NCBI GenBank assembly: GCA_965199495.1 | Contig: CBDASK010000003.1 | Coordinates: 4,192,001 to 4,256,000, forward strand | DNA length: 64,000 nucleotides | Direction of reading: 5' to 3' | Source of the DNA: Abditibacterium sp. | GTDB taxonomy: Bacteria; Armatimonadota; Abditibacteriia; Abditibacteriales; Abditibacteriaceae | In this document: piece after piece, positions 30,867 to 48,445 of the stretch | How the letters are laid out: the number at the start of each line of letters is the position of its first letter | Numbering within the stretch: the first letter of the stretch is position 1 | Made by a program: the position numbers and the translations under genes | The notes under the pieces: model-generated | What the model was told of the DNA's origin: nothing | What the model saw: only the letters and a program-made list of their open reading frames with translations | Databases searched by the model: none

Positions 30867-30869
30867 AAT

Positions 30870-31748
30870 TTAGGGGCCGACGGAGCCGAGGTCGGGATGG
30901 AAGGGCATTTCGAGCGGGGCATTGGTGTCGGGCGTGAAATCTGGTGTCGAGTTTTGCCCGTGCCCAAAATTGGCGCCCACGGCGGAAATTTGCAATCGCT
31001 CGATGGCGGGCGGGTTGACTTCGCCAAGGCCCACAGCGAGGGCGCCGATGGCCTCGCCCAGCAGATCGAACGGTTGCGGGAAAATGTCGTTGCCCTGCTG
31101 CAAGAGGGCGATTTGCGCCGCTAATGCGGCGATGGTGTTTTCGTTTTGTGCAATGCGGTTTTGGAGCGCGATGAAAGCAACCTGCGCGTTAAAATCAGCG
31201 TTGGGATCGGTTGGGTCGGCGGCTTCAAATTGCGCTAATCGCTCGTTGACGGTGCCTTTTTCGCGCGCTTCATCATCGTAACCGATGTCGGCCTGCAACT
31301 CTTCTAACAATGCAATTTTGCTGCGCGGTCGCCTGTCAACCCACTGTGTTTCAACCCATTGCGCCAATAGAAGTGCATCTGGCTCTTCTTCGTCTTCCGA
31401 CACGCGCAGTGTCGGCAACGCTCCGCGCGCCGAGTTGGTGCCCTGCGTGTCCTCGAATTCAGGGACGCGCAGAACCAAATGCAGATACTCGCCATCGCCG
31501 CGCGCAGGAATGGGAAGAGTATCAGGCACGCGAACGTAAATCGGCACGCCCGATTCGGTGCGAATAATCGCGCCGCCTGGCGCCACGGTGGATGTTCCCG
31601 CGAGCAGATCGGAGGCGCGCAAAACGCCGACGCCCAACGCCTCAAAAGCGCCGGGCAACTGTGCCTGCAAAATATCGCCGCGCAGATTGAGATCGTCTTC
31701 ATCAATTATGCTGTCAAAAGCGTAATCGGTCTTGATGTTATAGCTCAT
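30870..31748 (-). CDS. Phage tail-region protein with coiled-coil segment
   Basis: Operonic; ALQNRIAQNENTIAALAAQIALLQQ heptads. Confidence 0.6.
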   Translation of the reverse strand: MSYNIKTDYAFDSIIDEDDLNLRGDILQAQLPGAFEALGVGVLRASDLLAGTSTVAPGGAIIRTESGVPIYVRVPDTLPIPARGDGEYLHLVLRVPEFEDTQGTNSARGALPTLRVSEDEEEPDALLLAQWVETQWVDRRPRSKIALLEELQADIGYDDEAREKGTVNERLAQFEAADPTDPNADFNAQVAFIALQNRIAQNENTIAALAAQIALLQQGNDIFPQPFDLLGEAIGALAVGLGEVNPPAIERLQISAVGANFGHGQNSTPDFTPDTNAPLEMPFHPDLGSVGP

Positions 31749-31945
31749 CCCAATTTCCCCTCGTTAAGTGGCACTGTGCCGCAACGCAATGTGCGCCGCC
31801 CCAACGCGCGCGGTGTGGCTAACGCTCCATCAGTTGCGTCGGAGCGTTGGGCGTCGCGCATAATGGTGTTACGAAGCGGCGTTTGTTCGCTGGCTTTTGT
31901 GACCGCGCGCTCGACAATTTTGTTTTGAGATTCCCGAAGATGCAT
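31745..31945 (-). CDS. Small phage tail-region protein
   Basis: ATG 3 nt after the upstream stop; its stop overlaps the next start. Confidence 0.45.
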   Translation of the reverse strand: MHLRESQNKIVERAVTKASEQTPLRNTIMRDAQRSDATDGALATPRALGRRTLRCGTVPLNEGKLG

Positions 31946-31947
31946 TT

Positions 31948-34533
31948 TTATAATCCTGTTGCCGACAGTGCGCGCGCTGTGACCTGGGTGGAGCGTTCGG
32001 CGTTTGGCCCAAACTTCCACGTTTTTTTTGAGCGCAATACGCGCAGTTCTTCGCCTCGCCACAGCAGCTTTTCTCCCCAGCGTGCGGGCAAAATTTGATC
32101 GTTCAATGTGAAATCAAAGCGACGCGGCGCGCGCCCCTCGAACTCGCGCCAGATCGTCTGGGCCAGAGATTGGGCGTAGGCATCGAAGGCCATTGAGCCG
32201 ATGAACTCTTGGCGAACCAACAACCAGCGCGGCCACGACGCGATTTCCGAAAGTGGATCGGTGGCTGGAAGCGGCGTCGTCGCCAGCCCGGTGAATATTG
32301 ACGGCACATAATTCTCATAGCTGCCTTCGGGCGCTTTCCCCCAAACCGCTACTCTTGTGTATGCGTGCTCAAGTAACCCCTGTGCCGAATACGCTGAAAG
32401 TATCGGCCACGCGCTCAAGCGGTCGTCCTGCGTTACGTCTATGCCCGACGTCGTTTCGTGCAACGTGTGGATTTTTTGACCACGCTCTGCGAAGATTAAA
32501 TTTGAGTGCCCGTAAACGAACGCGCCTCGCCCGCCCTCGGTCGGCCCCATCGCCGGATCGTAGAACCACGCTGCATAATCGGCCTCGCCCAGCGTATCGG
32601 CCCATTTCTCCACGTCCGAGCCAAACGGCGGCGCCAAATCGAATCCGGCTTTCGTCGGTTGATTGGTGCTGCGGAAATAGTCGTTTCCCGAACTGGATTT
32701 GAGCGGATAATGGTTGCGCGGCAAGTAGCGCGACCAATCACCGTTCCCATTGAGTGCGCCCGCCCAATCGCTGCCCAACTCGTAGCCGATTAACTTTTGA
32801 AAACATTGTCCTCCGTAGAGATTGCCTCCGTGTTCGTGCAAATCCAAATCGAGCGGCGCATACCGTTCGTTGACCAGCGCCGCTGGCGCGCGCAGCCGAA
32901 TGCGTGGATCGAGAGCCGTGATCGAGAAATGTTGGTTATTGAAACCGTCGCTGCTTCCACCATCGGGCAACAAGTATCCGAAAAAGTCGCGCGCCCAGTT
33001 GCCGTCGTTGTTGACATCAGATTCGATGAGAATGGGACGAAACGGCAAAATTGCGGCTTCCCAACCGGGCACATGACGCTTCAGCATCTCAACTGAAACT
33101 TCGAGCTTGGCCTGCGCGCTGGGCAGCGATTCGGGATCGCCCGATTCGACTTCCAGACTGTCCATCGCCATGCGAAAATTAACCGGCGCGGGCGGAGGCG
33201 TGGGCGCCGTCGGTGGAAACTGCGCGGCGAAGCACATCAAAACGGGCGCTATCTCTCGCGTGCCGCGCAGCTTCACGCTGTAGTCAATGCGCCCAATACC
33301 ATTTTCAGACTCGTGCCACTTCGCGTTGATACTGGTTCTTTCCAAATCGGTGCCCAACATCTGCGCCTTGCCTTTAGCCAGCAACGCGTTGATGACCTCA
33401 TCGAAGAACGAAATACCAGTAGTAACGGACGTTTCATTGGGAAGGGGAATTCGCGTAATTTCGTCGCTTTTGCACTCCCACTCGACTGCGCTTGACGGCG
33501 GCGCGGCGGCAGGCACTTCGCGGTCGAAATTGACCTCACGATCAAACGACAACTTTGCGAATTGGATCACGACATCGGCGCCAAAAATTGAGACGCGCAA
33601 AGGCGACGCACGCCATGTCACGGGCGAAAACGTCGGCGAGTTGTTGGCGCCCTTTTTAGCCTGTCCAACCCACCATGTTTCACCATCGATCTCGACTATG
33701 AGCAAACCCGCTTGGATGTAGACCGTCACCACATGACGAGACTTCCACCATTTCTCATCCAGCGCGCCCGCGTCGTCGAAACGCCTGATCAATCTCCATC
33801 GTAACTGGGCGTTTTTATCAGCGCCTTTGCGTTCGAGTTGGACGCGCGCGGTTTTGCCGATGCCGCGAAATACCAGACTCCAACTATTGCCCCACTCCAA
33901 TCGAATCGCAGGCTCACTGGCATGTCCCCACGCCACGCCGTCACAATCGAGCGACCAACTCACGCCTTCATCGGCGCCCCACTGCTCACTGCGAACCTTG
34001 ACCGTGCGATTGGCGGGCGCGGCGCGGTGGTGCAGCCCCGCCCACTGCGGGAAGCGAAGCGGAATCACGCACTCCCATTTGTCGCCCTGTTGGGTGAACC
34101 AATGAAGCACTATCTCACCTTGAGGCAGACGTGGGCGCAGATCGTAATCGGGACTGCCGGGCGGTTTCGCAGGGTCTTCAATCGTCGAATGAACGCGCTG
34201 AAACGCGGGGCGAACCGTCCATCCGCAAAGTTCTTTTTGAGGGTTGGAAGCGGCGGCGGCGCGAACGCCGCGTTCGATGCGGCCACTGCGGTCGCCACCG
34301 ACAAAGCGCACCCATTCCATCGGGCCACTCACATTCTTGATGTATTGTTGGCCTTGCCATTCAAGCGCCTCGAAACCTGTCGCAGAGTTACCTTCGCCGC
34401 CCTCACCTCTATCGGGCAAAATCAGCCCCGAATAGGAATCGTGGAGAGCTACCGGCGTGCGGTAAGCCGCGTCGGGATCGAGCGGCCACACCCACACGCG
34501 CACCTCGGAGTGGACTTCCTGAAGTTGGGGCAT
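31948..34533 (-). CDS. Putative tail tip/hub-like protein
   Basis: About 860 aa, second gene of the distal tail block; function inferred from position. Confidence 0.55.
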   Translation of the reverse strand: MPQLQEVHSEVRVWVWPLDPDAAYRTPVALHDSYSGLILPDRGEGGEGNSATGFEALEWQGQQYIKNVSGPMEWVRFVGGDRSGRIERGVRAAAASNPQKELCGWTVRPAFQRVHSTIEDPAKPPGSPDYDLRPRLPQGEIVLHWFTQQGDKWECVIPLRFPQWAGLHHRAAPANRTVKVRSEQWGADEGVSWSLDCDGVAWGHASEPAIRLEWGNSWSLVFRGIGKTARVQLERKGADKNAQLRWRLIRRFDDAGALDEKWWKSRHVVTVYIQAGLLIVEIDGETWWVGQAKKGANNSPTFSPVTWRASPLRVSIFGADVVIQFAKLSFDREVNFDREVPAAAPPSSAVEWECKSDEITRIPLPNETSVTTGISFFDEVINALLAKGKAQMLGTDLERTSINAKWHESENGIGRIDYSVKLRGTREIAPVLMCFAAQFPPTAPTPPPAPVNFRMAMDSLEVESGDPESLPSAQAKLEVSVEMLKRHVPGWEAAILPFRPILIESDVNNDGNWARDFFGYLLPDGGSSDGFNNQHFSITALDPRIRLRAPAALVNERYAPLDLDLHEHGGNLYGGQCFQKLIGYELGSDWAGALNGNGDWSRYLPRNHYPLKSSSGNDYFRSTNQPTKAGFDLAPPFGSDVEKWADTLGEADYAAWFYDPAMGPTEGGRGAFVYGHSNLIFAERGQKIHTLHETTSGIDVTQDDRLSAWPILSAYSAQGLLEHAYTRVAVWGKAPEGSYENYVPSIFTGLATTPLPATDPLSEIASWPRWLLVRQEFIGSMAFDAYAQSLAQTIWREFEGRAPRRFDFTLNDQILPARWGEKLLWRGEELRVLRSKKTWKFGPNAERSTQVTARALSATGL

Positions 34534-35891
34534 CAGTTCACGTCCTCCTTCGCCCATCGCGCGCCCTCGTTATCGGTTCGCCACACAAACAGAGTTCCCG
34601 AACTGGACTCGCGCGCAAACAATCGAATCGCGCCGCCTTCGCCCGCTTCGAGGCTGACGCCGCCCTTGAGCGGCAAAGTCGAACCATCCGTCGTCTCGGC
34701 ACGCCCCGTTTTGGTCACGCTAAATCCGTCGTCGCCACGTTCCAACAACGCGTAAGCGGGCTTTTTTTCGTCGTCGGTGCCATAGAACAAAACTTTGGTT
34801 TGACCAGACAAAACGCAGTTGCAAATCGGCGTGATAGGAAGTGGTTGATTCATGAAACGATTCCAGTCTTCGCCTCGATTGACGGAGAGAAAAGCGCGCA
34901 GTTGGGACGGGTTGCCGCCGGTTGCGCCCACGCACACACGCGCATTGCCTTCGAGCCGGAGCAGTTGCAGGCCACGCAAGCGCGAATCGCGCTCAATGGT
35001 GCCGTTGTCGCCCTCATCTATTTTATCAGTTTCGAGCGTGATGCCGTGCCCATACTCAATTTGTCCTTCGAGCAGAGTCCCTCGCGTCTGGCGCGTGCGA
35101 CGACAGACAACTTTTGGCTTGCTTGCGCTTCGATCAACAAAGACGTGCAGACGTTCACCGGTGCGCGCATCGAGCAAAAACGCTTCGCCCGCCGCGCCTT
35201 CGCGCCCTGAAACCGTGTAGCGCGCCTCGGTAAGAATCGAGCTTTGCCACGAGTCCATCACTGTATCGAGCACCGCGCCTTCGGGAACCTCGACGCGGTA
35301 ATAAGACGATTGCCAGACCGCATGGAAGGTATAGCCTCCGACAGTGGCGGCGCCTTCGGGCATGAATATTGAAAAACCACGCTCGACATCGTATTTCTGG
35401 CGCGGCGTCGCGTTAGGCAAAAACGAAACGGTGTCAATGAATCGCCATGCGCCAGATTGACCGTAAATGTTGAGCGCGTCCACCTGAGCCGGATCATTGA
35501 CATTTTCGACGATAGCGCAGGCTTGCCCATCCACGATGCTGGTTTGCTGCGCGCCGCTACCGCCGTCCCCCAAAGGTTGCCACGTCACCAAGGCCAGCCC
35601 GCCGCCCAGTGAAAGCGCGATTACGCGCGCCGTCCAGGTGATGGTTTGCTCGAACAGAACGCTTGCCGTCAATTTGCCCTGCGCATCGCGAGAACCATCT
35701 TCGCGCAAGCGCACTTTCCACTGCCCTTTCAAATCAACTTGAGAAATGCCAAAATCGCCCGGATTGATAAAAACCTGCACTTCGAGCGCCTTGCGGTAAG
35801 CAAACGCATCCCAGATGTCCTCTACGGGAAGCTCGCCCTTGACGGTGCCGTTTTGTCCGCCCTTGACGTTCTCGAAATCGGTGTAAGCCAC
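34533..35891 (-). CDS. Phage tail protein (distal-tail position)
   Basis: First minus-strand structural-type ORF after tape measure once the inserted module is skipped. Confidence 0.55.
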   Translation of the reverse strand: MAYTDFENVKGGQNGTVKGELPVEDIWDAFAYRKALEVQVFINPGDFGISQVDLKGQWKVRLREDGSRDAQGKLTASVLFEQTITWTARVIALSLGGGLALVTWQPLGDGGSGAQQTSIVDGQACAIVENVNDPAQVDALNIYGQSGAWRFIDTVSFLPNATPRQKYDVERGFSIFMPEGAATVGGYTFHAVWQSSYYRVEVPEGAVLDTVMDSWQSSILTEARYTVSGREGAAGEAFLLDARTGERLHVFVDRSASKPKVVCRRTRQTRGTLLEGQIEYGHGITLETDKIDEGDNGTIERDSRLRGLQLLRLEGNARVCVGATGGNPSQLRAFLSVNRGEDWNRFMNQPLPITPICNCVLSGQTKVLFYGTDDEKKPAYALLERGDDGFSVTKTGRAETTDGSTLPLKGGVSLEAGEGGAIRLFARESSSGTLFVWRTDNEGARWAKEDVN

Positions 35892-36007
35892 TAATTAACT
35901 TCCTCTCTTGCGATTTGCTTGATCGCATCGGCAGGAAAGCGGCGAGGGAAGTTTCGCTTTTGACCTGGCTTCTCTGGTAAAGGACATGATTCAACCGAGA
36001 TGATTAC

Positions 36008-36232
36008 TCAGGACGCGTGATATTCAATCAGGTCGCTGATACTGGAAACAGAAAAGTAGGCGCAGAGCGTGTCAAGTGTTGCAAGGCGAACGCCGTCGAT
36101 TTTGCCCGATGACACTCGATGGATTGTTGCCAGTGCAAGCCCGGTTTCAGAGGCTATTGTCCGCAGGGGTAAATCTCGTTGTTCCTCAAAAGCCTTGCGG
36201 CGCCGTAAATCTTGAAAGTGCGATTTCATCAT
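36008..36232 (-). CDS. XRE/Cro-like HTH transcriptional regulator
   Basis: LRTIASETGLALATIHRV..VRLATLDTLCAYF..ISDLIEY. Confidence 0.85.
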   Translation of the reverse strand: MMKSHFQDLRRRKAFEEQRDLPLRTIASETGLALATIHRVSSGKIDGVRLATLDTLCAYFSVSSISDLIEYHAS

Positions 36233-36312
36233 TCTGCCTTGAATTTTCACGCATAGGAAAGACTGTGTGTGCATTGTCCCTTATTTTATCACAAATTAAA
36301 TCTTTTTAGATT

Positions 36313-36350
36313 TTTTTGTTCTTGTATTCTATAACAAAAAGACTTAAACT
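36313..36350 (+). promoter_or_regulatory. Sigma70-like promoter with overlapping inverted-repeat operator
   Basis: TTGTAT(36322)-N17-TAAACT(36345); tttttgtt/aacaaaaa inverted repeat spanning the -35 box. Confidence 0.55.
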
Positions 36351-36443
36351 GTCGCCGTCCGGCGAAAAGGACGCCGATAAACAGAAACGCCCCGCTTGAA
36401 TCTTGGTAGGACGAAAAGCGGGGCGTTGGTAGGAATAAACCCA

Positions 36444-36977
36444 ATGGAAAATATACCACAAAACGCGGGCGATTTCAACGCCCCCAGTGAGAACGCCACC
36501 CCTGCCGTTTCTCCCACTCCTAACCAAGACCTGCTAAAGGTCGGACTTTTCTCGTCCGTTGACCTGATGGCTCTAAGAAGCTTTGGGGATACGCCGATGC
36601 AACTGGCGACGGCGGCGCAAGAGTTAATCGCCGCTACGGAAACTAAGCCTCGCAATGAGTGGGGCAACTACGGACGCTTTGATTTTTCGAGCCAAGCCGA
36701 TAGTGCCCGTAACGCTTATGCGGCGATTCGCATCTGTCGAACCGCCCTCGATTTCCTCGAAGCGGACTTGGCAAAATCGGTCGATTTTGAGAGCTACAAT
36801 TACCGGCAACAGGTATTGCTTTTCACCAAATGGTCGCCTCCAAAGTCAAGGGTAGAGAGTGCCGAGGATGCTTACTGGGAGTTAATGGAGCGGTTGAATG
36901 AGGCGGGCCTGTCTTACGATGAGTTCAAGGAAATCATGGACGAAGAGGCGGGCGACGATGGGGAGGTGGAAGCCTAG
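36444..36977 (+). CDS. Acidic hypothetical protein
   Basis: ATG after aggaat RBS; first gene of the plus-strand module. Confidence 0.65.
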   Translation: MENIPQNAGDFNAPSENATPAVSPTPNQDLLKVGLFSSVDLMALRSFGDTPMQLATAAQELIAATETKPRNEWGNYGRFDFSSQADSARNAYAAIRICRTALDFLEADLAKSVDFESYNYRQQVLLFTKWSPPKSRVESAEDAYWELMERLNEAGLSYDEFKEIMDEEAGDDGEVEA

Positions 36978-36979
36978 TC

Positions 36980-37017
36980 GGGCGACGTGGCTGCTGTTGA
37001 TAGCAGCCACGTCGCCC
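36980..37017. other. Perfect 16-bp intergenic hairpin
   Basis: gggcgacgtggctgct-gttgat-agcagccacgtcgccc. Confidence 0.75.
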
Positions 37018-37028
37018 TTGGCCTTGAC

Positions 37029-37376
37029 ATGAAACTACAAGCCAAAGGAGACAGCAAACAAAAGCGAGTGACTCGAATTGTCCTCGAAGCCGAAACGCGA
37101 GCCGACGAAGCGGTTTTATATGCGAAGTATTTGGAGTTGAAGGAAGAGACTCCTAAGCTCGCGTCAATCTACCAAGACGTGCTCGACCTGGTCGAAGAGG
37201 GCATCGGCCTCGCCTCCGAAATTTCCGATGCTCTCGACGTTCCTCTGACCGCAATGAACAACCGTCTGGCTCACCTCAAGAAGATGGGCCTCATAGAGCG
37301 CGAAAAGGTTGCCGCCCCTGCTGGCGGGCGCCGCTTCATTTATCGAATTAGTTCGACGGAACAAGGAGATGCTTGA
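37029..37376 (+). CDS. Winged-HTH (ArsR/MarR-like) protein
   Basis: ASEISDALDVPLTAMNNRLAHLKKMGLIER..GGRRFIY. Confidence 0.75.
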   Translation: MKLQAKGDSKQKRVTRIVLEAETRADEAVLYAKYLELKEETPKLASIYQDVLDLVEEGIGLASEISDALDVPLTAMNNRLAHLKKMGLIEREKVAAPAGGRRFIYRISSTEQGDA

Positions 37377-38005
37377 TGAGCGATAAAACTTTCGGCGCAC
37401 GACTGCGCCAGATGCGCGAGGCAGTCGGCATCAGTCGGCGTGACTTGGCGGCGCGCGCGCAACTTTCCGAAACGTATATCGAGAAGGTGGAGCGCGGATA
37501 CAATGCGCCGCCGTCGGCTTTAGCGATTGCCGACATTGCGCGCGCGCTCCGAGTTGACGGCGATGAGCTTTTCGCCCTTGCGGGCAAGCTGGCGCCCGAC
37601 TTGGAGCGCCGCTTACGTTCGGAGCCGTTATTAGTGCTGGCCTGTCGTGCAGCCACGGCGATGTCGTCTTCTGACTTGCGAGCCTTCTTGATCACGCAGG
37701 GAGTGAGCGGGGAGAAGATGGATTGGCAGGGCGCCGAGGTGACGATGAACGACGAAAGGCGGGTGCGGCGGGAGATTATCACTTCGGAAATGAAGCGCGC
37801 AGTCTTTCATCTTGACAGTCACGAGTGCGTTTATTGTTCGTCGGCGAAGTTGCTTGAAGTTGATCATGTTCAGCCGTTTTCATCGGGCGGCACCAATGAC
37901 ATTGAAAATCTGGTGACGGCTTGCGAGAGGTGTAACAAGAAGAAGTCGAATCGTGCCACGCCGTTTGTTATGGTGTTTGGGCGATTTCGGGGGGAGGTAA
38001 AATAA
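37373..38005 (+). CDS. XRE HTH - HNH endonuclease fusion
   Basis: N-terminal FGARLRQMREAVGISRRDLA; C-terminal CVYC..LEVDHVQPFSSGG..NLVTACERCNKKK. Confidence 0.85.
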   Translation: MMSDKTFGARLRQMREAVGISRRDLAARAQLSETYIEKVERGYNAPPSALAIADIARALRVDGDELFALAGKLAPDLERRLRSEPLLVLACRAATAMSSSDLRAFLITQGVSGEKMDWQGAEVTMNDERRVRREIITSEMKRAVFHLDSHECVYCSSAKLLEVDHVQPFSSGGTNDIENLVTACERCNKKKSNRATPFVMVFGRFRGEVK

Positions 38006-38007
38006 TT

Positions 38008-39345
38008 ATGAAACGAATGCGCGCCTACAAAGTGGAGCTTGCTCCGAATAATACTCAGAAAACCGCACTGCTTCGTCATTGCGGTGCGGCGCGATTCGTT
38101 TACAATTGGGGACTAAACGCCAAGATCGAAGCTCGCAAAGGCGGCGAAAAGCCTCTGTCCGCCCAAAAGCTGGACGGAGTTTTGCGCTCGATCATGGACG
38201 AAGAATTCCCTTGGATGCGAGAGGTTTCGTCCCAATGCCGCCAGGGGGCGCTCGCCAATCTTGAAGCGGCTTACAAGAATTTTTTCACTCGCTGCAAGAA
38301 AGGCAAAAAGGGGCGCGCAACTGGCTTTCCCAAATTCAAAAGTCGCAAGAATGGACTCGGAGGGTTCGTCGTCTTTGGATATACCATCACGAATGACTCG
38401 GTAAAAATCTCTCGCGTCGGCACCGTTCGACTCAAAGAAAAGGGCTATTTACCGATTGGAGGCTATGGAAAAAATTCTGATACCGTGCGCTTTTATGGTG
38501 CGAGAGTGAGTGAGCGGGCGGGTCGATGGTTCCTTTCTGTTCAAGTTGAGGTCGAAGCGCCCGAACCTGATCAGAAGTCGGAGAGGATTGTTGGCATAGA
38601 TTTCGGCGTGAAAACGTTAGCGGTTTGCAGCGATGGCACCACGTTTCAAAGCCCCAAGGCGCTCAAGGCCAATCTGAAGCGGCTGGCGCGCGCGCAACGT
38701 TCGATGAGCCGTAAGATTGAAGCGGCTAAGAAGTCTGGCCGCGCCTTGCGCGAGTGCAAAAACTTTCAGAAGTCAAAGACGCGCGTGGCGAAAATCCACG
38801 CGCGAGTGGCCGATTTGCGGCGCCATAATCTGCACCACGTTTCTCATGTGCTGACGCGAAAATCAAGCGTTTTGTGCATCGAAGATTTGAACGTGGCGGG
38901 CATGGTGAAAAATCGGCATTTGGCGCGCGCGATTAGCGATTTAGGCTTTGGAGAGTTACGCCGTCAAATCGAATATAAATCGGAGTGGCGCGGCGTTGAA
39001 GTCGTGATTGCAAATCGTTGGTTTCCCAGTTCAAAAACGTGTAATGCGTGCGGACTGGTGAATCAGGAATTACAGTTGAAGGATCGAGAATGGAAGTGTG
39101 AGTGTGGCGAGCGGCATGACCGCGATTTGAACGCCGCTTATAATTTGAGAGATTTGGCCGCGAATCGCGCGGTGTCTGACTGTGGAGGGAAAAGCTCTGG
39201 CGATGCGCTTGCGCGTCGTGAAACTATTCCCTGTGAAGCAGTAAGCGGGCTTGAAACTCTGGTTTCTATCAGCCCCGCACCTACTGAGAACAGTAGCATC
39301 CCTGTGTGGGCGGTCGGGAAAAACGGACAATTACGATGGTGTTAA
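38008..39345 (+). CDS. tnpB: TnpB / Cas12-like RNA-guided endonuclease, CRISPR-associated
   Basis: RAYKVEL..RFVYNWGL, GFPKFKSRK, RuvC-I VGIDFG, RuvC-II CIEDL, zinc finger CNAC/CECG, RuvC-III DRDLNAA; no tnpA nearby. Confidence 0.93.
   Translation: MKRMRAYKVELAPNNTQKTALLRHCGAARFVYNWGLNAKIEARKGGEKPLSAQKLDGVLRSIMDEEFPWMREVSSQCRQGALANLEAAYKNFFTRCKKGKKGRATGFPKFKSRKNGLGGFVVFGYTITNDSVKISRVGTVRLKEKGYLPIGGYGKNSDTVRFYGARVSERAGRWFLSVQVEVEAPEPDQKSERIVGIDFGVKTLAVCSDGTTFQSPKALKANLKRLARAQRSMSRKIEAAKKSGRALRECKNFQKSKTRVAKIHARVADLRRHNLHHVSHVLTRKSSVLCIEDLNVAGMVKNRHLARAISDLGFGELRRQIEYKSEWRGVEVVIANRWFPSSKTCNACGLVNQELQLKDREWKCECGERHDRDLNAAYNLRDLAANRAVSDCGGKSSGDALARRETIPCEAVSGLETLVSISPAPTENSSIPVWAVGKNGQLRWC
39180..39345 (+). 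ncRNA. Putative omegaRNA/tracrRNA-like scaffold with anti-repeat
   Basis: Hairpins gcgggcttga..tcagccccgc and ctactg-agaa-cagtag; anti-repeat catccctgtg-N9-gggaaaaac at 39297-39324; boundaries approximate. Confidence 0.6.
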
Positions 39346-39363
39346 ATCCTATCTGTCATGTGT

Positions 39364-39514
39364 GTTTTTCCCACACGCACAGGGATGGATGGAATACCTC
39401 AAGGCGACCGGCGAACTGCTCGATGTTTTTCCCACACGCACAGGGATGGATGGATTGTTTTCCGACCAACTACACCGAAGCGGGCGTTTTTCCCACACGC
39501 ACGGGGATGGATGG
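39364..39514 (+). CRISPR. CRISPR mini-array: 3 x 29-bp repeats, 2 x 32-bp spacers (type I-E-like)
   Basis: GTTTTTCCCACACGCAC(A/G)GGGATGGATGG at 39364, 39425 and 39486; spacers 39393-39424 and 39454-39485. Confidence 0.92.
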
Positions 39515-39723
39515 CCTTGGGAGGGGCCGGTTGCCTGATGCGTCATTATTGGTGTGGGGTGAAGGCACAATGGCTATATGTGGACTTTCTGCGCGGGTGG
39601 CGCCGCGCTTGCACAAAAGTCGCTTGGCATTTATATGGCGACGCGACAATCTCCCTCGAAAGAAATATGAGTAAGGCAATAGTAGCATTAGCGACCTCAT
39701 CGAATACTCGCCGCCATCATGAA

Positions 39724-39752
39724 GTGTTCCCCGCGAGTGCGGGGATGAACCG
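39724..39752 (+). CRISPR. Solitary canonical type I-E repeat
   Basis: GTGTTCCCCGCGAGTGCGGGGATGAACCG; no repeat 61 bp up- or downstream. Confidence 0.8.
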
Positions 39753-39834
39753 ACTGAGTGAGTTAGCTTTCGCAACGAAGCGATGGCAAAAGCGTCGTAT
39801 AAAGTCCCGCAAAGTGAATCTCTTCTTTTGACCC

Positions 39835-39862
39835 TTGTCAAAGGCATTAAATTCGCTAAAAT
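39835..39862 (+). promoter_or_regulatory. Sigma70-like promoter
   Basis: TTGTCA-N16-TAAAAT, then aggagg RBS before ATG 39903. Confidence 0.5.
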
Positions 39863-39902
39863 TAAGTGAGTGATTCATTCACTCACAGGAGGCAAAACAT
39901 CA

Positions 39903-40124
39903 ATGGCAATAAAATCACGGTCAAGGACGTTCACTGTCGAGCCGTCTTACACAGAACTGGTTAATCCCGCACTTTTTTTGAAGATGTGCAAAAGTAGCAG
40001 AGAAAACATCGAGTTCGTTCGCATAGTCCCGCCGCGCCTCGGCAGCAAAACGGTTGGCGGACGAATTTTGGTCAGGCGCAAAAAACCCATCTATCGGATG
40101 CCATTTCGGAGTCCGATTAAATGA
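39903..40124 (+). CDS. Small basic hypothetical protein (moron)
   Basis: Strong RBS; overlaps the next gene; low GC. Confidence 0.65.
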   Translation: MAIKSRSRTFTVEPSYTELVNPALFLKMCKSSRENIEFVRIVPPRLGSKTVGGRILVRRKKPIYRMPFRSPIK

Positions 40125-40588
40125 TGAATCTGCCTGAAAACAACAACTCAGCGTCAGAGCCACAATCCCTGATTCAAAACCCAGAAATTTTGGCTGTGAT
40201 GCTGAAAAACCAAGAGTCTGAAATTCGAGTCCGCAGCGAAGACATCAAGTTTAAAGACAAAGAGCTTGGCTTACGTGAACGAGAAATAGATAAAGCTCAC
40301 GAGTTCGCAATGAAGTCGCTTGATGTGCAGGCATCAGATAGAGTCGATGAAAGGAAGTTTCAAAGGTCTCTTACGACCAAAATATTTTTGTTTCTTGGGA
40401 TTGCCTTAAGCATGATTGTTTTGGGGTTCTGCTATGCCATTCATCTTGGTAAAGATGCAATCGTGATGGAAATTGTCAAAGCGATGATTTATCTGGGTGC
40501 TGGCGGTCTTGGTGGCTACTCTGCAAAATCCACCAAAGATAAAAAGAAAAATGATGATGAAAGCTGGGCAGAAGAAGACGAGGATTGA
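40121..40588 (+). CDS. Coiled-coil, two-TM membrane protein (DUF2335-like, moron)
   Basis: N-terminal coiled coil, two TM helices, GLGGY motif; low GC. Confidence 0.65.
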   Translation: MMNLPENNNSASEPQSLIQNPEILAVMLKNQESEIRVRSEDIKFKDKELGLREREIDKAHEFAMKSLDVQASDRVDERKFQRSLTTKIFLFLGIALSMIVLGFCYAIHLGKDAIVMEIVKAMIYLGAGGLGGYSAKSTKDKKKNDDESWAEEDED

Positions 40589-40597
40589 ATAATGAAT

Positions 40598-40630
40598 AAA
40601 AGGGACTGGCGAATTCGCCAGTCCCTTTTT
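40598..40630. terminator. Bidirectional intrinsic terminator
   Basis: aaaagggactggcgaattcgccagtcccttttt. Confidence 0.85.
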
Positions 40631-40667
40631 GCTTTTTCGAGAGTTTTGATTTAAAATTGAGGGCACT

Positions 40668-41471
40668 ATGCAATGCCCCTTCTGCTCTTACCAATTATCT
40701 GACTTCGAGGATGCCGCTCACTGCCCTAAATGTCATGGCAAAGGCATCCCGAAACCTACTATTGTGCCGCCACAGTCGCCACCCCATGTTCCCTATAATC
40801 CGACGATTCCCCACGCCCTAACTCCCATCAAACGCGGCCCCAACGCGTGGCTGATCTTGGCGATTGCCGGAGGCGTCTTCGCCTTCATCCTGGCGCTGCC
40901 CCTTCTGTTGGTTGGCGGATTGGTCGGAGTTGGCAGCCAAATCAAAGGGCAAATCGAGGCCGATAACAACGCCGCACTCTCCGCAAACTCGGCATTGCCC
41001 GCGCCGACCATAGCTCCAGTTGGGGCACCAGTCTTTGTCCCAACGCCGTTTTCAACTCCAACGAGTGCACTACCCAAAGCGCGGACTGTGGCACCTGCCG
41101 CCGATGAATCGTCGGGACTGCCTCAATTTGAGGCGGCGAGCGGCTGGGTTGTTTACGCGCGAAAGAGCATGGATGCCATTCGCTCGGCTCCCTCGTCGCA
41201 GATCGCATCGCTGCAGTATCTGGAATTGCTGAGTTTGGAACGCGACCTCGAAACCGAGAAGCAACGAGCCATTGCCGCGCGCCAGCCGGGTCGCGCCACA
41301 ACATTCGGTATCGTCGCCGAAGTGCCGCGCGCTCTGGCTGAAGCCGCCGATACCCGCGCCAAATTCCTGCGCGGAACCTTGGGCGAACGCGAATACCGCG
41401 CTTACATGAGCGGCTCAGACACCACGACCGACTTTGTGGCGCGTCAGGCCGATGGCCGAGCATCACGTTAG
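40668..41471 (+). CDS. Zinc-ribbon, single-TM membrane protein
   Basis: CPFC..CPKC, Pro-rich linker, TM helix. Confidence 0.65.
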   Translation: MQCPFCSYQLSDFEDAAHCPKCHGKGIPKPTIVPPQSPPHVPYNPTIPHALTPIKRGPNAWLILAIAGGVFAFILALPLLLVGGLVGVGSQIKGQIEADNNAALSANSALPAPTIAPVGAPVFVPTPFSTPTSALPKARTVAPAADESSGLPQFEAASGWVVYARKSMDAIRSAPSSQIASLQYLELLSLERDLETEKQRAIAARQPGRATTFGIVAEVPRALAEAADTRAKFLRGTLGEREYRAYMSGSDTTTDFVARQADGRASR

Positions 41472-41483
41472 AACCCAAAAAAA

Positions 41484-43325
41484 TCATCGCGCCGCCGCCT
41501 CGAACGATTTGCGACCAATGCTCTCTTCGAGCAGACCCAGCACATTGCTGCTCGACGCGCGCGCTTTTGCGGCATCTTCGACCTTGCGTAAAGCGCCCAC
41601 GATGTCCTTATTCCCCTTCTTCTGTTCCACAAGCAAATCTTTCATCGCCGCCGTGAATTCCGCTTCGCGCTGGTCTTTTGGCCCCAGCCATTGCTCGATC
41701 TCATCCAGCGCGCCACGGGCGCCACTGAACTTCGGGTCGGTAAACGCGCGCGCCTGTTTCAACCGATCTTCCATCGCGTCCGCAATTTTTCCGGCCTGTC
41801 CGCTTTTGCGAAAGGTCTCGATCTGGTCGGCAAAGTGCGTGGCCGGAAACGCCAGATAGCCCTTTTTCGCCTCGTTCATCGGGTCTTCGTAGGTGCGCGG
41901 CGCCAGCCCCATGATTTTACGCTCGGCAATGTCAACGGGGTTATACATTGCCAGGTTGTTCATCAGAGCCTTCACATACATTGCGCCAACAGCGAAGGTC
42001 TGCACGCCGCCCGTCAGCATATCGATGCCACGCCCGACGATGACGAAGAAATTCATAAAGCTGCTTTGGCCCGCCTCAAACGCGCGAAGGCCGTTCACGA
42101 TGCCGTCGCCGATAGAGTAGATGCCGTTCACGAACATCTCCGCCGCACTCAAACCCACCCGCGCGGCCCGCAAAAGCAAAAACGGAAATTCGACGTAGAG
42201 CCAGCGCGTTCCCGCCTGAATCGCGTTCGCAATTTTGCCCGAATTGGCTTCGAGATACGCCGTAGCTTTGTCCAATCCCTGTTCCATGGCCGGAAGCATC
42301 GAAGAGAGAAAACGCATCTTCACGGTCTCGGTGAACATCGAGACGCGGTTTTGCAGCAACGGGTATTCATCCGACAGGCGCCGAATCGCTTCGGGCGTGA
42401 CGCCCAGCGCGCCCTGAATGCGGCTCTGATACTTTTGCTCGCGCTCGATGATTTCGGGCCGCGTGTTTTGCAGTTGCAGCAGTTCGGGCGATGCCTGACC
42501 GCCCGACAGAGCATCGGCCATCGCGCGCCGCTGGAAGATGCTCATACTCTGCGACTTGCGAGCGAACTGGGCGGCAAACCGAGGATCAAGAGGATCGGGT
42601 AAGCCAAAGCTGCCCGCGATTTGCCGACCTATAGGGCCGCGCATAGAATCCGAACCCAGAAACGCGCTCGCGCCTTCTCCGCTCAGTCCGGCGGCGCGTA
42701 GCGACAGATAACCGCCCATCGCCTTACCTGTCGAGGCGCCGGTATTGTTGCGAATTGAGGTGATTTCGCGCGCGATGCGCGTCATCTCGCGCGTCAGACT
42801 GCTCATCACCTTCACGAACCCGAAAAGCACGCCCGAAACGAGCGCCAGCCCGCCCAGCAGAATGCCTCCGCCCAGCTTGACCGCCCCGCCGATGGCGCCG
42901 ATAACGCCACCCACCACGCGCGCAGCGACGCCCACGACAGCGACGCCCGCGCGCGCGACGCCGCCAGCCGCCATCGCGCCGACGCCGACGATGCCGCGCG
43001 AAGCGACTGCGTTGCGCAAAGCGGTGAGTGGATTGAGACTGCCAGTGGCGCCCTGACCGAACAACCGTTGGCGAATTGTCTGACGTGGCGGCGGAGGCGG
43101 TGGCGCAGGTGGAGGAAAAACGGTTTGATAATAACGAAGAAGCGAATTGAATCTCGCGCTTTCGACAGTATCGGCGGGGCGGTCGAACAACCTGCCACTG
43201 GGCAAACGAACGGTGACGATCCAGCGCCCCGACTGGTAGCGCCACGTATTATTGACGGTCTGGCGCCGCACCTCGCGCGTCGCAGCAGCGATGGCCTGGG
43301 GCGTCGGTTGCGAAGCGGGAGGCAT
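41484..43325 (-). CDS. Tape measure protein
   Basis: Ala/Gly-rich helical protein with hydrophobic stretches, directly after the tail chaperones. Confidence 0.7.
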   Translation of the reverse strand: MPPASQPTPQAIAAATREVRRQTVNNTWRYQSGRWIVTVRLPSGRLFDRPADTVESARFNSLLRYYQTVFPPPAPPPPPPRQTIRQRLFGQGATGSLNPLTALRNAVASRGIVGVGAMAAGGVARAGVAVVGVAARVVGGVIGAIGGAVKLGGGILLGGLALVSGVLFGFVKVMSSLTREMTRIAREITSIRNNTGASTGKAMGGYLSLRAAGLSGEGASAFLGSDSMRGPIGRQIAGSFGLPDPLDPRFAAQFARKSQSMSIFQRRAMADALSGGQASPELLQLQNTRPEIIEREQKYQSRIQGALGVTPEAIRRLSDEYPLLQNRVSMFTETVKMRFLSSMLPAMEQGLDKATAYLEANSGKIANAIQAGTRWLYVEFPFLLLRAARVGLSAAEMFVNGIYSIGDGIVNGLRAFEAGQSSFMNFFVIVGRGIDMLTGGVQTFAVGAMYVKALMNNLAMYNPVDIAERKIMGLAPRTYEDPMNEAKKGYLAFPATHFADQIETFRKSGQAGKIADAMEDRLKQARAFTDPKFSGARGALDEIEQWLGPKDQREAEFTAAMKDLLVEQKKGNKDIVGALRKVEDAAKARASSSNVLGLLEESIGRKSFEAAAR

Positions 43326-43571
43326 TTACGGTTTTCTCCAGATGTCAATTTGCGCTTTTTGGAGCGCGAGTTCGTAAGCGGCGCGGCTGGACGCGAAGAT
43401 CGCCATGCCCTCGCGCCAGCGCCGACTCTTGTTTTTGCCGTCAACGCTCGACTGCACGGCCTGAGCGCTCCAATAATCGCGCCACAGTTCGGCGAAAAAC
43501 GCTTCCTGTTCCGGCGTTCCGGTGGGGCCGCTCTCGCCTCTTAGAGCGCGAGCAAATCGTCGACTAAAAAA
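43326..43571 (-). CDS. Tail assembly chaperone -1 frameshift extension (gpT-like)
   Basis: Open -1 frame (FFSRRFARALRG...DIWRKP) entered at T TTT TTA, 43565-43571. Confidence 0.7.
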   Translation of the reverse strand, partial: FFSRRFARALRGESGPTGTPEQEAFFAELWRDYWSAQAVQSSVDGKNKSRRWREGMAIFASSRAAYELALQKAQIDIWRKP

Positions 43572-44131
43572 TCCGCGTCCTCGCGCCCGATGCCCGATTT
43601 CTCGATCACCCTCAGCATCACGAGCTGCTGGTCGTCGCCGTTGAGTTGGCCAAACGCTTTGACCGAAAATGGGCGCTCGTAATCCCATCCGGCGAGGGTC
43701 TTCTCGAACACCCAGCGCGCGATCATCGCGTTTTCTTGCTGAGCGTTGCGATAACCCTGCTGCAATCGCTGGCGCAGCGCCACGGCCTCGTCGTGTTTGC
43801 CTTCTGTATCAAGCTCCTGCGCGCGTGGCTCTTCCAGAGCGGGCGCGCGCATGGCGGCGACGACGGCCTTGCAACGAGTCACAAACTCGCCGTATGTCTC
43901 GTCATCCATCTCGCGCGCATAAACCACGCCGCCGGTCGTCGGCACCTCAAAGGTGTAAACATTCGCGCCCTGCTCATCACGAAAAGCGGCTCTACGCAAA
44001 CCGGCGGGGACAAACGTTTGTTCGACGAGAGTGCCATCAGCAGTGAGTTCGGCTTCGGGCACTTCGGTTGGGGCTTTCGCCACGGGGGCTTTGCGAGTTC
44101 TGGGATTGGAATTAGGTTTGGACATGATCAA
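43541..44131 (-). CDS. Tail assembly chaperone (gpG-like)
   Basis: Between tail tube and tape measure; LAGWD motif; slippery site near the 3' end. Confidence 0.72.
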   Translation of the reverse strand: MIMSKPNSNPRTRKAPVAKAPTEVPEAELTADGTLVEQTFVPAGLRRAAFRDEQGANVYTFEVPTTGGVVYAREMDDETYGEFVTRCKAVVAAMRAPALEEPRAQELDTEGKHDEAVALRQRLQQGYRNAQQENAMIARWVFEKTLAGWDYERPFSVKAFGQLNGDDQQLVMLRVIEKSGIGREDADFLVDDLLAL

Positions 44132-45075
44132 ATCAAAGTGAGTTCGAGCGAATCGGCAGTAAAAGGCACGGAAAAATCGAGTTCGCCGTTGCTTTCAACG
44201 CCCTGCATCGTTTCGTCAGAAGGAAACGGGCCGTGAATCGTCAACTCGAAACCTTTGTTTGCTTCGACATCGCTGCATCCGACGACGATGCTCTCCCAAT
44301 CCTGCGCTAAAACAGAACCATCAAACAGCGCCTTGGCCAAGCGCGCATGAAGCGACATTTCGCCGTCAACTTTTTGCTGATGATCCATCAGTTCAAACGC
44401 AGTGATAGAAGACGGCGCGTTGTCGCCGTAAAAAGGCGTGTTACTTTTGGCCTCGACGGAATAATCTGCCTTAGCTGTAAGGTTAATCAGATAGCGGCGG
44501 TAATTTTTGACCGCGCCAGTGCTGTCGGTCAAGTTGCACTTTTTCACGTCGTGCCACATCAAAGGCGTGCCCAGCGCGCGCAATTGGGCCGGAGTGACAA
44601 CCAGAGCACCTATCTCCTGCCGCTCAATCGCCATGAAGTTGGCGGTGACGTTGAGTTCGCCGCCGCCATCGGCGCTCCCGCCAAAATTGAAATCAACCGA
44701 ACCGGGCTTGCAGTGACGGTAAACGATGGTATATTGGCCTTTGACGACGACGAAAATCGCCAGATAAGGCAACTTGCCATTGGCATCTGGGAACAACTGC
44801 GCCAGAGCAGCCACGTTGCCGGGCCGAACGGCGACCGTGATCGTCGGCTTGCGCATCCCGCGCTTATTATAGGCCGCACCCTGTTGGCCGACGGCGTAAC
44901 CCTTGGAGTTGTTGAGTCCGCGATTGTTTTGCGGAGAATCGGTATAGCCCAGCACGACTGGCGACGAAGGCACCGACGGATAGGCCGCCATCGTGCCGTC
45001 GTCGAGCAGGTCGGGCGGCGGCGCGGTTTCAATCGCGTAAAGCACAGCAACGTCGTGCGCAGGAATAAATGGCAT
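44128..45075 (-). CDS. Major tail tube protein
   Basis: Size, beta-rich composition and position; C-terminal ELDFSVPFTA. Confidence 0.65.
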   Translation of the reverse strand: MPFIPAHDVAVLYAIETAPPPDLLDDGTMAAYPSVPSSPVVLGYTDSPQNNRGLNNSKGYAVGQQGAAYNKRGMRKPTITVAVRPGNVAALAQLFPDANGKLPYLAIFVVVKGQYTIVYRHCKPGSVDFNFGGSADGGGELNVTANFMAIERQEIGALVVTPAQLRALGTPLMWHDVKKCNLTDSTGAVKNYRRYLINLTAKADYSVEAKSNTPFYGDNAPSSITAFELMDHQQKVDGEMSLHARLAKALFDGSVLAQDWESIVVGCSDVEANKGFELTIHGPFPSDETMQGVESNGELDFSVPFTADSLELTLI

Positions 45076-45080
45076 AAAAG

Positions 45081-45644
45081 TTAGTCCTCAAGTTCGTTCA
45101 TTGACGGCGATTGAATCATCCGAAAAGTGGCAACGGTGCAACTGTAGTTTTTGAAGCGGTCGCCCTTGTCAATCGAAATGCCCGTCGGCACCAGCGACTT
45201 CCAAACACTCTGATCGTTCTCGTCGGTGCATCCGCTCAGAAATGGATACAGACATTGCCGAATGACCTCAGCTTTAGCCCAACTCTGGCGCACCTGTTGA
45301 TTGCCGATGATGCGCCCGTCCACACAGAACACGCGAACCGTGACCCTGTTGCGAAACACGCCGCCAATGCCTTCGGATTCGGTCATGACCTCGAAATCCA
45401 CCAACACCGCGCCGATATGGTCATTGCTCAAATCGGCGGGCGCGATGTCGATTTCTTTGGCATTCGCTGGCGCAATCGCCCGATTGCCCGTCCAGCCTTT
45501 GCGCGTGTTTTTGTCGGCGATGGCACCGGGCAACATCTCGCGCAAACGAGCGACGAGTTCGTCTTGCGCGGCGCCGGTATCACCGTTGACGAGTTCATCG
45601 GCTTCGCGTAATTCTTCGAGGGTGGGCGTAGGTGTGCGTGGCAT
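45081..45644 (-). CDS. Putative tail terminator/completion protein
   Basis: Position upstream of the tail tube gene. Confidence 0.5.
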   Translation of the reverse strand: MPRTPTPTLEELREADELVNGDTGAAQDELVARLREMLPGAIADKNTRKGWTGNRAIAPANAKEIDIAPADLSNDHIGAVLVDFEVMTESEGIGGVFRNRVTVRVFCVDGRIIGNQQVRQSWAKAEVIRQCLYPFLSGCTDENDQSVWKSLVPTGISIDKGDRFKNYSCTVATFRMIQSPSMNELED

Positions 45645-45814
45645 CAGTCAGATTTCGCGCCCTTGCGCGGCGTTTTCTTTTCGACTTCCTCTTCGTCGTT
45701 GTCGGGTTTGGGCGGTTTGGGTTGCAGTTCGTCGGGCACTTTGACAACAGCGCCACCCAGTTCGGTGTCGAAGTCGATTTCTTGCGAGCCGACTTTACGT
45801 TTTTCAATAGCCAT
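45644..45814 (-). CDS. Small phage protein (56 aa, not in ORF track)
   Basis: Manual translation MAIEKRKVGSQEIDFDTELGGAVVKVPDELQPKPP...GAKSD; TGATG overlap with the next gene. Confidence 0.6.
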   Translation of the reverse strand: MAIEKRKVGSQEIDFDTELGGAVVKVPDELQPKPPKPDNDEEEVEKKTPRKGAKSD

Positions 45815-45816
45815 AA

Positions 45817-46110
45817 TTATTTGCTCAGGTGCTGCGAAATCGTTGGATATTCGCTGTGCGCGTCGAAGTCAACTCCGCGCCATTTGTCCAACATCTGATG
45901 GAAGGTTGGTTGAGGAAGAGAGTTGAGGAGATTGAGATACGGAGATGAGCCGTCGCCATTCATGATTTGCCTATCTATTTCGGCGTAATGGGATTCGAGG
46001 GCGATACATAGTCGCTCGTTTATATAGTCACGAACGAGGTCGCCTATTTCAACATCATCGTCAAAAATATTTATTTCGGCGCCAGAAAAAGGTAAAAGCA
46101 TTTTCGTCAT
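45817..46110 (-). CDS. Hypothetical protein (lower GC)
   Basis: 97 aa ORF coupled to its neighbours. Confidence 0.5.
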   Translation of the reverse strand: MTKMLLPFSGAEINIFDDDVEIGDLVRDYINERLCIALESHYAEIDRQIMNGDGSSPYLNLLNSLPQPTFHQMLDKWRGVDFDAHSEYPTISQHLSK

Positions 46111-46769
46111 GATTTGCGATTCTCCAGAGTCAAAATGCCGCGTTGCGGTAGCCGTTTTTCATCCGAACCAAACGGTGGCGTTTTATCAGAAATATCCAAA
46201 AATACGAATTGAGGATGGCGACGATAAGTAATGCGACACAGAAGCGGCGGGGCGCCGATCCATCGCACAAAAGAGCGTCCGTCGTCTTCGACTTCGAGCG
46301 TTGCCTCTCCCTCACTGACCGAAAGCAGTTCGACTGCGCGAAAATAATCCAACTCATCGCGATGCTCGCCTGATGGAATGAAAGCTTTGCGCGCCAACAC
46401 GCGCCGATCAATCAAGATCACGCGATCACCGCGCGCCAGCTCGACTTCATCGGGCAGACAGGCGATGCTGGTCTGCCCCTGCGAAATCAAACCGAACTCG
46501 GCATCGAAAACGGCGCGCTCAGTTGAACTAATCGCTACGCGCACGCTCTCGCCCAACTCGCTCTCGACATACAAATTGCCATCGCGCTCGACAGTCTCGC
46601 TATTTGGCCCCACCATCTCTTCGGGTGCGTTCGGGAAACAGGCGAAGTGCCGGATGCGCTCGCAGTGCTGACCGAACTGCTCACGATAATCCTCCGAGGT
46701 GATGCCCGCCGCTTCTGGCGTTTCTGCGTAGGGCAACGCGGCCAATTGTGCTTCGGTGAGATTCGTCAT
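46107..46769 (-). CDS. Putative head closure/stopper protein
   Basis: Position after the connector; ATGA overlap. Confidence 0.55.
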   Translation of the reverse strand: MTNLTEAQLAALPYAETPEAAGITSEDYREQFGQHCERIRHFACFPNAPEEMVGPNSETVERDGNLYVESELGESVRVAISSTERAVFDAEFGLISQGQTSIACLPDEVELARGDRVILIDRRVLARKAFIPSGEHRDELDYFRAVELLSVSEGEATLEVEDDGRSFVRWIGAPPLLCRITYRRHPQFVFLDISDKTPPFGSDEKRLPQRGILTLENRKS

Positions 46770-47425: not shown

Positions 47426-47460
47426 AGCTTGCTGAGATCGCGGGTAAATTGCGAAAACCT

Positions 47461-47547
47461 TCAGTCTGCGATTTTTCGCAGACTGACCAGAATGCTTGAG
47501 CGGATCAGTGTCTAACTGAATTGGCCTTCAATTCAGTTAGACACTGA
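47461..47547. other. Two perfect hairpins (11-bp and 19-bp stems)
   Basis: 47461-47486 and 47505-47547. Confidence 0.75.
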
Positions 47548-47551
47548 AAGA

Positions 47552-48154: not shown

Positions 48155-48163
48155 GATGATTCC

Positions 48164-48376
48164 TTAACTGTCGTCTTCGTCATCGTCTTCTTCGTCCTCC
48201 GAGGCGAAGTGCGGGTTCTCTTTGGCCAATTTCTCGGCTCCGTTACGAATCACTTCGGTGAACTGTTCGTTGGTCGGATCGCCGGGCGAGACCTGATACA
48301 GGCTGCCCGGCGCATGCGCCTTGACTTCGTTGCCCCGAATGTCGAGGCCGTGCGGAATTTTGTCTCTTTTTGCCAT
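48164..48376 (-). CDS. Small acidic phage protein
   Basis: ORF after the capsid gene. Confidence 0.55.
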   Translation of the reverse strand: MAKRDKIPHGLDIRGNEVKAHAPGSLYQVSPGDPTNEQFTEVIRNGAEKLAKENPHFASEDEEDDDEDDS

Positions 48377-48404
48377 AGAAATGAAAGTTGTGTCGAGTAA
48401 CAGA

Positions 48405-48436
48405 TCATACCCGGTCAGAATTCTGACCGGGTATGA
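48405..48436. other. Perfect 32-bp palindrome after the capsid gene
   Basis: tcatacccggtcagaattctgaccgggtatga. Confidence 0.8.
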
Positions 48437-48445
48437 CACGTTAGG

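Follow-up and report, generated by a model that had tools for sequence, protein, structure and literature searches.

A prophage IS607-type TnpB beside type I-E-like CRISPR repeats: a probable TranC-like split-guide system aimed at related temperate phages

A prophage in the genome of an Abditibacterium species very probably encodes a TranC-like system, in which a TnpB nuclease is aimed at related temperate phages by a guide split into a tracrRNA and crRNAs. The locus was analysed within a stretch of 64,000 nucleotides, called here the window, and this reading is drawn from sequence comparison, RNA folding and covariation. The features concerned, with their positions in the window, are as follows.

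19969..60894, no strand assigned: surrounding prophage, at least from integrase to terminase, with major head protein and portal between them
37373-38005: HTH-HNH fusion gene, 2 nt 5' of tnpB
38008..39345, + strand: tnpB, 445 aa, read as IS607-type; core of about 385 aa and a tail read through the RNA region
39157..39173, + strand: 5' hairpin of the omegaRNA/tracrRNA, loop 39163-39167 (AAUCG); PK2 of ISFba1
39158..39279, + strand: IS607-type omegaRNA scaffold, model positions 5-131 of 137, 46.5 bits
39245..39278, + strand: terminal stem of the ancestral scaffold, from the covariance model
39281..39296, + strand: added hairpin, 6 bp with an AGAA loop, enclosing the old element end GAGAACAG at 39286-39293
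39297..39324, + strand: anti-repeat, an inverted and degenerate repeat copy located where the ancestral guide lay
39325..39363, + strand: leader or linker, 39 nt, containing the last codons (QLRWC) and the stop codon of tnpB
39364..39392, + strand: repeat 1, 29 nt, type I-E-like, with a weakened hairpin (-5.9) and the 3' end ACCG changed to ATGG
39393..39424, + strand: spacer 1, 32 nt, target not found
39425..39453, + strand: repeat 2, without differences from repeat 1
39454..39485, + strand: spacer 2, 32 nt, matching a prophage virion gene in genome G003 at 27 of 32 bases
39486..39514, + strand: repeat 3, terminal; its single A to G substitution still allows G-U pairing to the anti-repeat
39724..39752, + strand: lone canonical type I-E repeat with a full hairpin (-14.4), 210 nt 3' of the array

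The small tnpB cassette lies inside the virion genes of the prophage, on the strand opposite to them; the integrase is encoded at 19969-20883, the major head protein at 48446-49855, the portal at 54141-56408 and the terminase at 59260-60894. The upstream neighbour of tnpB is the HTH-HNH gene, and the two probably share one operon. What marks an active IS607 element is missing: neither tnpA nor any other serine transposase gene stands beside tnpB, the old element end now reads AG with the GG lost, and no second tnpB copy was found in the 4.8-Mb genome. The RuvC residues D198, E292 and D373 are all intact. The protein scores 291 bits with NF038280 (cut-off 350) and is also below the cut-off of NF038281, and its reading as IS607-type rests on the fit of its RNA to GG-ended relatives and on an ISFba1-type pseudoknot.

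The tnpB frame crosses the RNA region and stops within the leader, and because it extends through to a tail motif, the anti-repeat region is read both as RNA and as protein. The tail ends (39331-39342) in a QLxL(W/F)-type motif, which, by sequence likeness, we take to resemble a sliding-clamp-binding motif. In the wider clade, 11 of 21 proteins end in a motif of this type, as compared with nine weaker cases in 204 others; the proteins listed with it are the window TnpB, P0002-P0007, P0011-P0013, P0018 and P0027. The accessible text of PMC3971601 mentions a motif of the sliding-clamp-binding type for cyanobacterial IS200/IS605 OrfB only. Eight proteins of 62–81% identity form a clade with the window TnpB, and five of them have a similar in-frame tail leading to a final QLxL(W/F)-type motif. 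This conservation was not counted as RNA evidence, since part of it may be protein-driven. The covariation described below rests on loci of 39–51% identity, as the seven closest other proteins, P0002-P0007 and P0009, are represented by protein only, which counts against the reading.

The scaffold was delimited with a covariance model built from 54 ordinary, array-less relatives; no relevant family was matched in Rfam. The RNA stops at a GAGAACGG-type motif, with unconserved flank after it, in 115 of the 123 distant TnpB loci with enough downstream DNA, the end pattern having been written after inspection of the loci. Those distant loci that were scored for arrays had none behind them, L038 and L073 giving four stray word hits and one, respectively. 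The hairpin that encloses the old end in the window has compensatory changes in its stem in the related locus L105. Both hairpins named in a preliminary description of this DNA (39245-39278 and 39281-39296) are present in the sequence as described. The anti-repeat itself, which that description had embedded in the omegaRNA region, sits just past the end of the ancestral scaffold, where relatives have their guide.

The predicted duplex of anti-repeat and repeat comprises 23 pairs in blocks of 12, 2 and 9 (-33.3 kcal/mol) and leaves the last five repeat bases unpaired. The complementarity reported earlier is real, and its blocks are longer than the 10 and 9 pairs first given. When every 28-nt stretch of the + strand of the window was paired with the repeat, 39297-39324 came out as the most stable (runner-up -29.7; mean -10.9, sd 3.4). 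None of 300 dinucleotide shuffles of the 100 nt 5' of repeat 1 matched the native pairing; folded in cis, the segment 39240-39424 reaches z = -3.2 (1 of 200 shuffles). With repeat 3, the single variant base of which retains a G-U pair, the duplex reaches -32.6.

The array consists of three repeats of 29 nt and two spacers of 32 nt, with a period of 61 nt, and its repeats look type I-E-derived by sequence. Repeats of the I-E type occur in 6 of 30 relatives; those of four relatives differ from the window repeat at 9–13 of 29 positions. The leader has CTAT at -15..-12 and GT at -2..-1, in common with two I-E leaders in relatives, a likeness observed post hoc. The repeat pattern was found in the host's own genome alone among 31 genomes, and in this genome and G221 alone among 401. 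Exact-pattern scans of viral contigs with the repeat, spacer 1, spacer 2 and a two-repeat consensus gave no matches each, and a scan for promoters and terminators gave no signal above chance. Contigs from sequencing runs matched the region in the probable source sample only, and the region was without variants; no RNA data set was among the runs listed for it.

The strongest link between the array and TnpB is provided by a pseudoknot. The solved structure of ISFba1 has the loop of its 5' hairpin paired with bases -6..-2 of the scaffold, which precede the guide, and the complex requires this contact (PMC11061315). Loop positions 2–5 pair with bases -3..-6 in all 54 ordinary relatives; position 2 with base -3 is always G-C (54/54), and six compensatory cases occur at positions 3 and 5. 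The window loop, AAUCG, makes three pairs with repeat bases -5..-3 and one with the old end. Because the loop fits the repeat tail, the window RNA would expect the repeat, not the old end, before the guide. In the array-bearing loci, loop position 2 forms A-U with repeat base -3 (9/9), and position 3 pairs with repeat base -4, also in 9/9, as U-A in two, A-U in five and G-C in two. The summed Watson-Crick runs are 30 with the loci's own repeats versus 13 with the ancestral tail (permutation p = 0.003, a value inflated by related loci). These nine loci leave out the near-copy L391, and the loops of L389 and L270 (4 and 6 bases) were read from their central five. Among the close relatives known as proteins, P0002 and P0007 have Asn-Arg at the loop codons, for which arrays ending in GAU(GG) would be predicted, and P0004 and P0006 have Ser-Arg, for which the predicted end is GAC(GG). 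It counts against this re-wiring that the window pseudoknot has three pairs versus four in ordinary relatives, and that L369, L378 and L399 have two in that register. An earlier pseudoknot candidate, 39171-39175 with 39277-39281, was dropped in favour of the covarying one. The preliminary description had tied the array to TnpB, rather than to a host Cascade, through the anti-repeat pairing. The tie itself holds, since the scaffold loop covaries with the last repeat bases; pairing alone is compatible with Cascade, the anti-repeat pairing with a true I-E repeat at -30.9.

Similar arrangements were found elsewhere. A search of 401 genomes gave five matches, including G221, in which a TnpB of 39% identity precedes 29 repeats, likewise of 29 nt and similar in kind (L230:11250-13000); the 27 leader-side repeats end in TGG and the two oldest in TCG. 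Neither Cas1 nor Cas6e was found in the G221 genome, which is 93% complete. Two viral scans yielded 158 loci, including one genome locus, with the protein end present in 154 and at least 600 nt behind it in 146. Repeats were flagged in 14 loci: in ten, I-E-like repeats stand right behind the RNA (L258, L259, L270, L369, L378, L389-L392 and L399), and four have more distant repeats. The compared set also numbers ten, namely the window, G221 and eight viral-scan loci, with L390 and L392 left out as near-copies of L389. All ten proteins keep D/E/D, and all ten TnpB-linked repeats have lost the ACCG end (seven TGG, three TCG).

In eight of the ten compared loci, the predicted fold places a hairpin no more than 2 nt 5' of an anti-repeat that pairs with the locus's own repeat; the exceptions are L259 and L270. 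Covariation in homologues, proposed earlier as a check, is thereby borne out, since these repeats differ among the loci and the pseudoknot loop changes along with the repeat tail. In shuffling, the number as good as the native duplex was, of 300, 0 for the window, 1 for L369, 4 for L391, 5 for L399, 7 for L258 and 10 for L378. Against the reading count the four loci in which the duplex is not significant (L259, 32; G221, 44; L389, 65; L270, 90 of 300), as does the finding that only in five of the ten does the upstream region pair best with the locus's own repeat. The earlier interpretation, in which the anti-repeat would pair with repeat 1 in cis and with the other repeats in trans, is supported in so far as it ties the array to TnpB.

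In a FastTree phylogeny of 437 proteins, the array-bearing loci fall in five places among array-less ones. Although the tree separates the window and G221 lineages, their independent origin was not retained, as a common origin of the two groups stands in an AU test of 44 proteins (p = 0.157). The scattered arrays may reflect repeated origin, a single origin followed by losses, or transfer of the RNA module between loci.

Among the close relatives, only L105 (65% identity) is accompanied by DNA, and it is without an array, which counts against the reading. Scans for the DNA of the closest relatives gave none in viral data and L105 only in genomes; among the matches listed from the metagenome scan were distant TnpBs (40–49%), and close relatives were not found in the phage and plasmid collections. 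In L105 the old end is retained, as is the added hairpin, the stem of which carries compensatory changes; a short anti-repeat stub closed on a repeat-like end in GG comes next. Its loop makes three pairs with this second end and two with the first, and its sister protein P0007 has the long tail. The stub and the repeat end appear to be fused (RNA region L105:6117-6284), and we read L105, from its sequence, as a re-fused single guide. Its presumed guide gave, in five genomes, 2-mismatch hits only, at chance level.

The spacers indicate possible targets. Spacer 2 matches 27 of 32 bases at L224:1501-1532 in G003, within a virion gene of a related prophage; about 0.001 such matches are expected by chance in some 150 Mb, and four of the five mismatches are synonymous. 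The G003 gene is homologous to window 44128-45075 (34%, E 4e-37), and the two have a neighbour in common; no family was matched in PHROGs, and from its position the G003 gene was called a tail-tube-like virion gene. The prophage's own copy differs from spacer 2 at 14 positions. Against a working guide count the flank of the G003 target, which is GCG and not AAG, the divergence of this copy, and the fact that only one of the two window spacers has a target. Neither spacer 1 nor the 24 nt that follow repeat 3 matched a target in 31 genomes or in the host's own genome. Of three matches made by spacers from other loci, two are preceded by AAG, which is the I-E PAM according to the accessible text of 10.64898/2026.04.20.719267: a G221 spacer matches a recombinase gene of G166, and an L399 spacer matches its own phage. 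The latter target (L399:4557) is the gene just downstream, with one mismatch, at the first position.

In the mechanism we propose, the prophage would retain an immobile but catalytically intact IS607-type TnpB, and a single transcript would cover tnpB, the old omegaRNA and the array. With its old end folded into the added hairpin and the anti-repeat appended, this RNA would serve as a tracrRNA, pairing with repeat 1 in cis, which would give spacer 1 a natural single guide, and with the remaining repeats in trans. Processing of the RNA is presumed; TnpB is reported to trim its own RNA. The free 3' tail of the repeat, GAUGG, replaces the ancestral GAACGG, completing the pseudoknot with the 5' loop and ending in GG, as covariation shows, and the spacer after it would act as the guide. 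Spacer 2 and the intact RuvC residues suggest that TnpB may cut related temperate phages. The repeats would be borrowed from type I-E systems, and new 32-nt spacers may be written by I-E Cas1-Cas2 of other hosts. In the present host the array may be frozen, since I-E Cas6 (Cas6e) was not found in its genome (G000, 95% complete); it was found in G006.

A locus of the same ancestry that has decayed and no longer works, having two spacers in a host without an adaptation module, seems improbable. The presence of only three repeats, the failure to find Cas6e in the host genome and the spacer 1 result would agree with decay, but the frame is open with D/E/D intact, repeats 1 and 2 are identical, the sole repeat variant still pairs and every helix is intact. 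Still more doubtful is a phage mini-array serving a type I-E Cascade of the host, with TnpB as an unrelated neighbour and the anti-repeat as a relic or regulator. Virus-borne mini-arrays are known from the portion of the literature available, and the 29-nt I-E-like repeats, the 32-nt spacers, the leader likeness, the lone canonical repeat 210 nt downstream and the pairing of the anti-repeat with a true I-E repeat would all suit it. However, a Cascade-type I-E repeat has a strong hairpin and an ACCG handle end, and the window repeat has neither (-5.9, as compared with -10.0 to -14.4 in four relatives; ATGG). The ACCG end is lost throughout the TnpB-linked repeats, the loop of the TnpB RNA covaries with the repeat tail, and in G221, where TnpB has an array of 29 repeats next to it, the 93% complete genome gave neither Cas1 nor Cas6e.

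Since the anti-repeat occupies the former guide position, it may itself be considered the guide: the omegaRNA would then end at the ancestral site, and TnpB, as an anti-CRISPR nuclease, would target I-E repeats of the host. The anti-repeat does stand where ordinary relatives have their guide, and it is complementary to the I-E repeats of relatives (-20.1 to -30.9). Yet the first three bases past the old end lie within the covarying hairpin, the old end lacks GG and pairs with the loop at one position, and a guide of this kind would be mismatched with the repeats at its first bases; we consider this the least probable of the alternatives. The split-guide TnpB aimed at related temperate phages is by far the best account of the locus.

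The comparisons with known systems draw on the accessible portions of the cited publications. TranCs were derived from IS605 and IS607 TnpBs several times (PMC13639567, PMC13565253, 10.64898/2026.03.27.714800, on Jin et al. 2025 Cell), and the window system resembles them in its small TnpB-like nuclease, IS605-/IS607-type derivation, lack of cas1 and omegaRNA split into tracrRNA and crRNA. CauTranC9, in particular, is phage-borne and unexpanded, like the window system, and targets phages, as the latter is proposed to do. Repeats of TranC clades 3, 9, 11 and 20 measure 32–38 bp, whereas those of the window are 29 bp and I-E-derived; the window tracrRNA comprises the complete old scaffold and continues beyond where that ended, in contrast to the cut terminal stem of TranC. 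LaTranC matches residues 248-387 of the window TnpB only (E 2e-23), as compared with 1e-61 for a solved TnpB. Like a TranC, the window has a TnpB-like RuvC protein beside an array and no adaptation genes of its own; structure and covariation add an omegaRNA-derived tracrRNA with an anti-repeat and a crRNA supplying the 3' end of the scaffold. By these described features, and not by a named clade, the window system would work like a TranC.

Other relatives differ more. Cas12n (V-U4) shares the tracrRNA and anti-repeat located in an unstructured C-terminal read-through of the gene (10.64898/2026.03.27.714800), but is larger, with expanded REC/WED, and its 540-aa chain 9j09 matches window residues 133-383 only (E 1e-30). 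The window core of about 385 aa, against the 500-aa class, and its far closer match to TnpB than to 9j09 place it outside Cas12n. Cas12r of Thermus Lalka phages is likewise a phage-borne TnpB-like nuclease with a short array, 29-bp I-E-like repeats, 32–33-nt spacers, proposed I-E adaptation and rival elements as targets (10.64898/2026.04.20.719267); as described, it has 564 aa and no tracrRNA, which sets it apart from the 385-aa core and full omegaRNA-derived tracrRNA of the window. IS607 TnpBs with a one-piece omegaRNA (ISFba1, PMC11061315; CboIStron, 10.1101/2023.11.20.567912) share the protein family, the RNA core, the pseudoknot of the 5' loop with scaffold bases -6..-2 and a scaffold end in G/GG; the window differs in having no transposase, a single copy and last scaffold bases that come from a CRISPR repeat. 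In the RpoE-linked TnpB (PMC10691335), half a repeat and the tracrRNA are re-fused into one RNA, as appears to be the case for L105, although that protein is nuclease-dead and Cas12f-derived and the L105 protein keeps D/E/D.

The literature covered contained no IS607-type TnpB whose repeats derive from type I-E, whose anti-repeat lies past the old end and whose pseudoknot has been re-wired; the TranC sequence supplements, which lie outside it, may list these loci. The chances seem about even that IS607-type TnpBs have repeatedly become CRISPR effectors by capturing host I-E repeats, appending a hairpin and an inverted repeat copy and re-wiring the pseudoknot, so that a phage gains adaptive targeting from host Cas1-Cas2 with an unexpanded 385-aa nuclease, in a reversible manner (L105). 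Such a capture route for the transition from TnpB to CRISPR is absent from the parts of the literature examined. Two origins for type V arrays, the duplication of an omegaRNA piece and the capture of an existing array, are weighed in PMC10691335, which, as far as its available text goes, does not decide between them but leans towards duplication. The present loci point to capture, given their I-E-like repeats, and the RNA contact that changed can be specified to the single base. The relatives include ordinary, split and re-fused states, which makes the transition testable with few point mutants. The loci also supply candidate programmable nucleases of very small size, for which guide RNAs are predicted, as well as a candidate for phage-against-phage targeting that would borrow the spacer-writing enzymes of hosts. 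They may represent one route by which CRISPR immunity arises from a jumping gene, with the cutting of rival viruses as the most likely role.

Several minor observations concern repeats outside the arrays and the host. The lone I-E repeat at 39724-39752, in a host without a detected I-E Cas6, may act as an RNA anti-CRISPR or as a regulator guided by Cascade. Stray repeats occur elsewhere too, three behind the G221 array and one lone degenerate repeat in G003. In G221, the two oldest repeats pair better with the anti-repeat, one spacer is present twice, and one spacer matches the own genome beside a gene which we take to be IscB-like. The host's own CRISPR, read as type I-B from gene order and repeat, has a different 30-nt repeat in 131 copies with spacers of 32–38 nt, mostly 35–36; one of its 130 spacers matches the prophage at about 28110-28147, on the minus strand, with four mismatches. 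Finally, genes for a ParB-like and a queuine tRNA-ribosyltransferase-like protein (61497-63509) adjoin the terminase gene, a hint of phage DNA modification.
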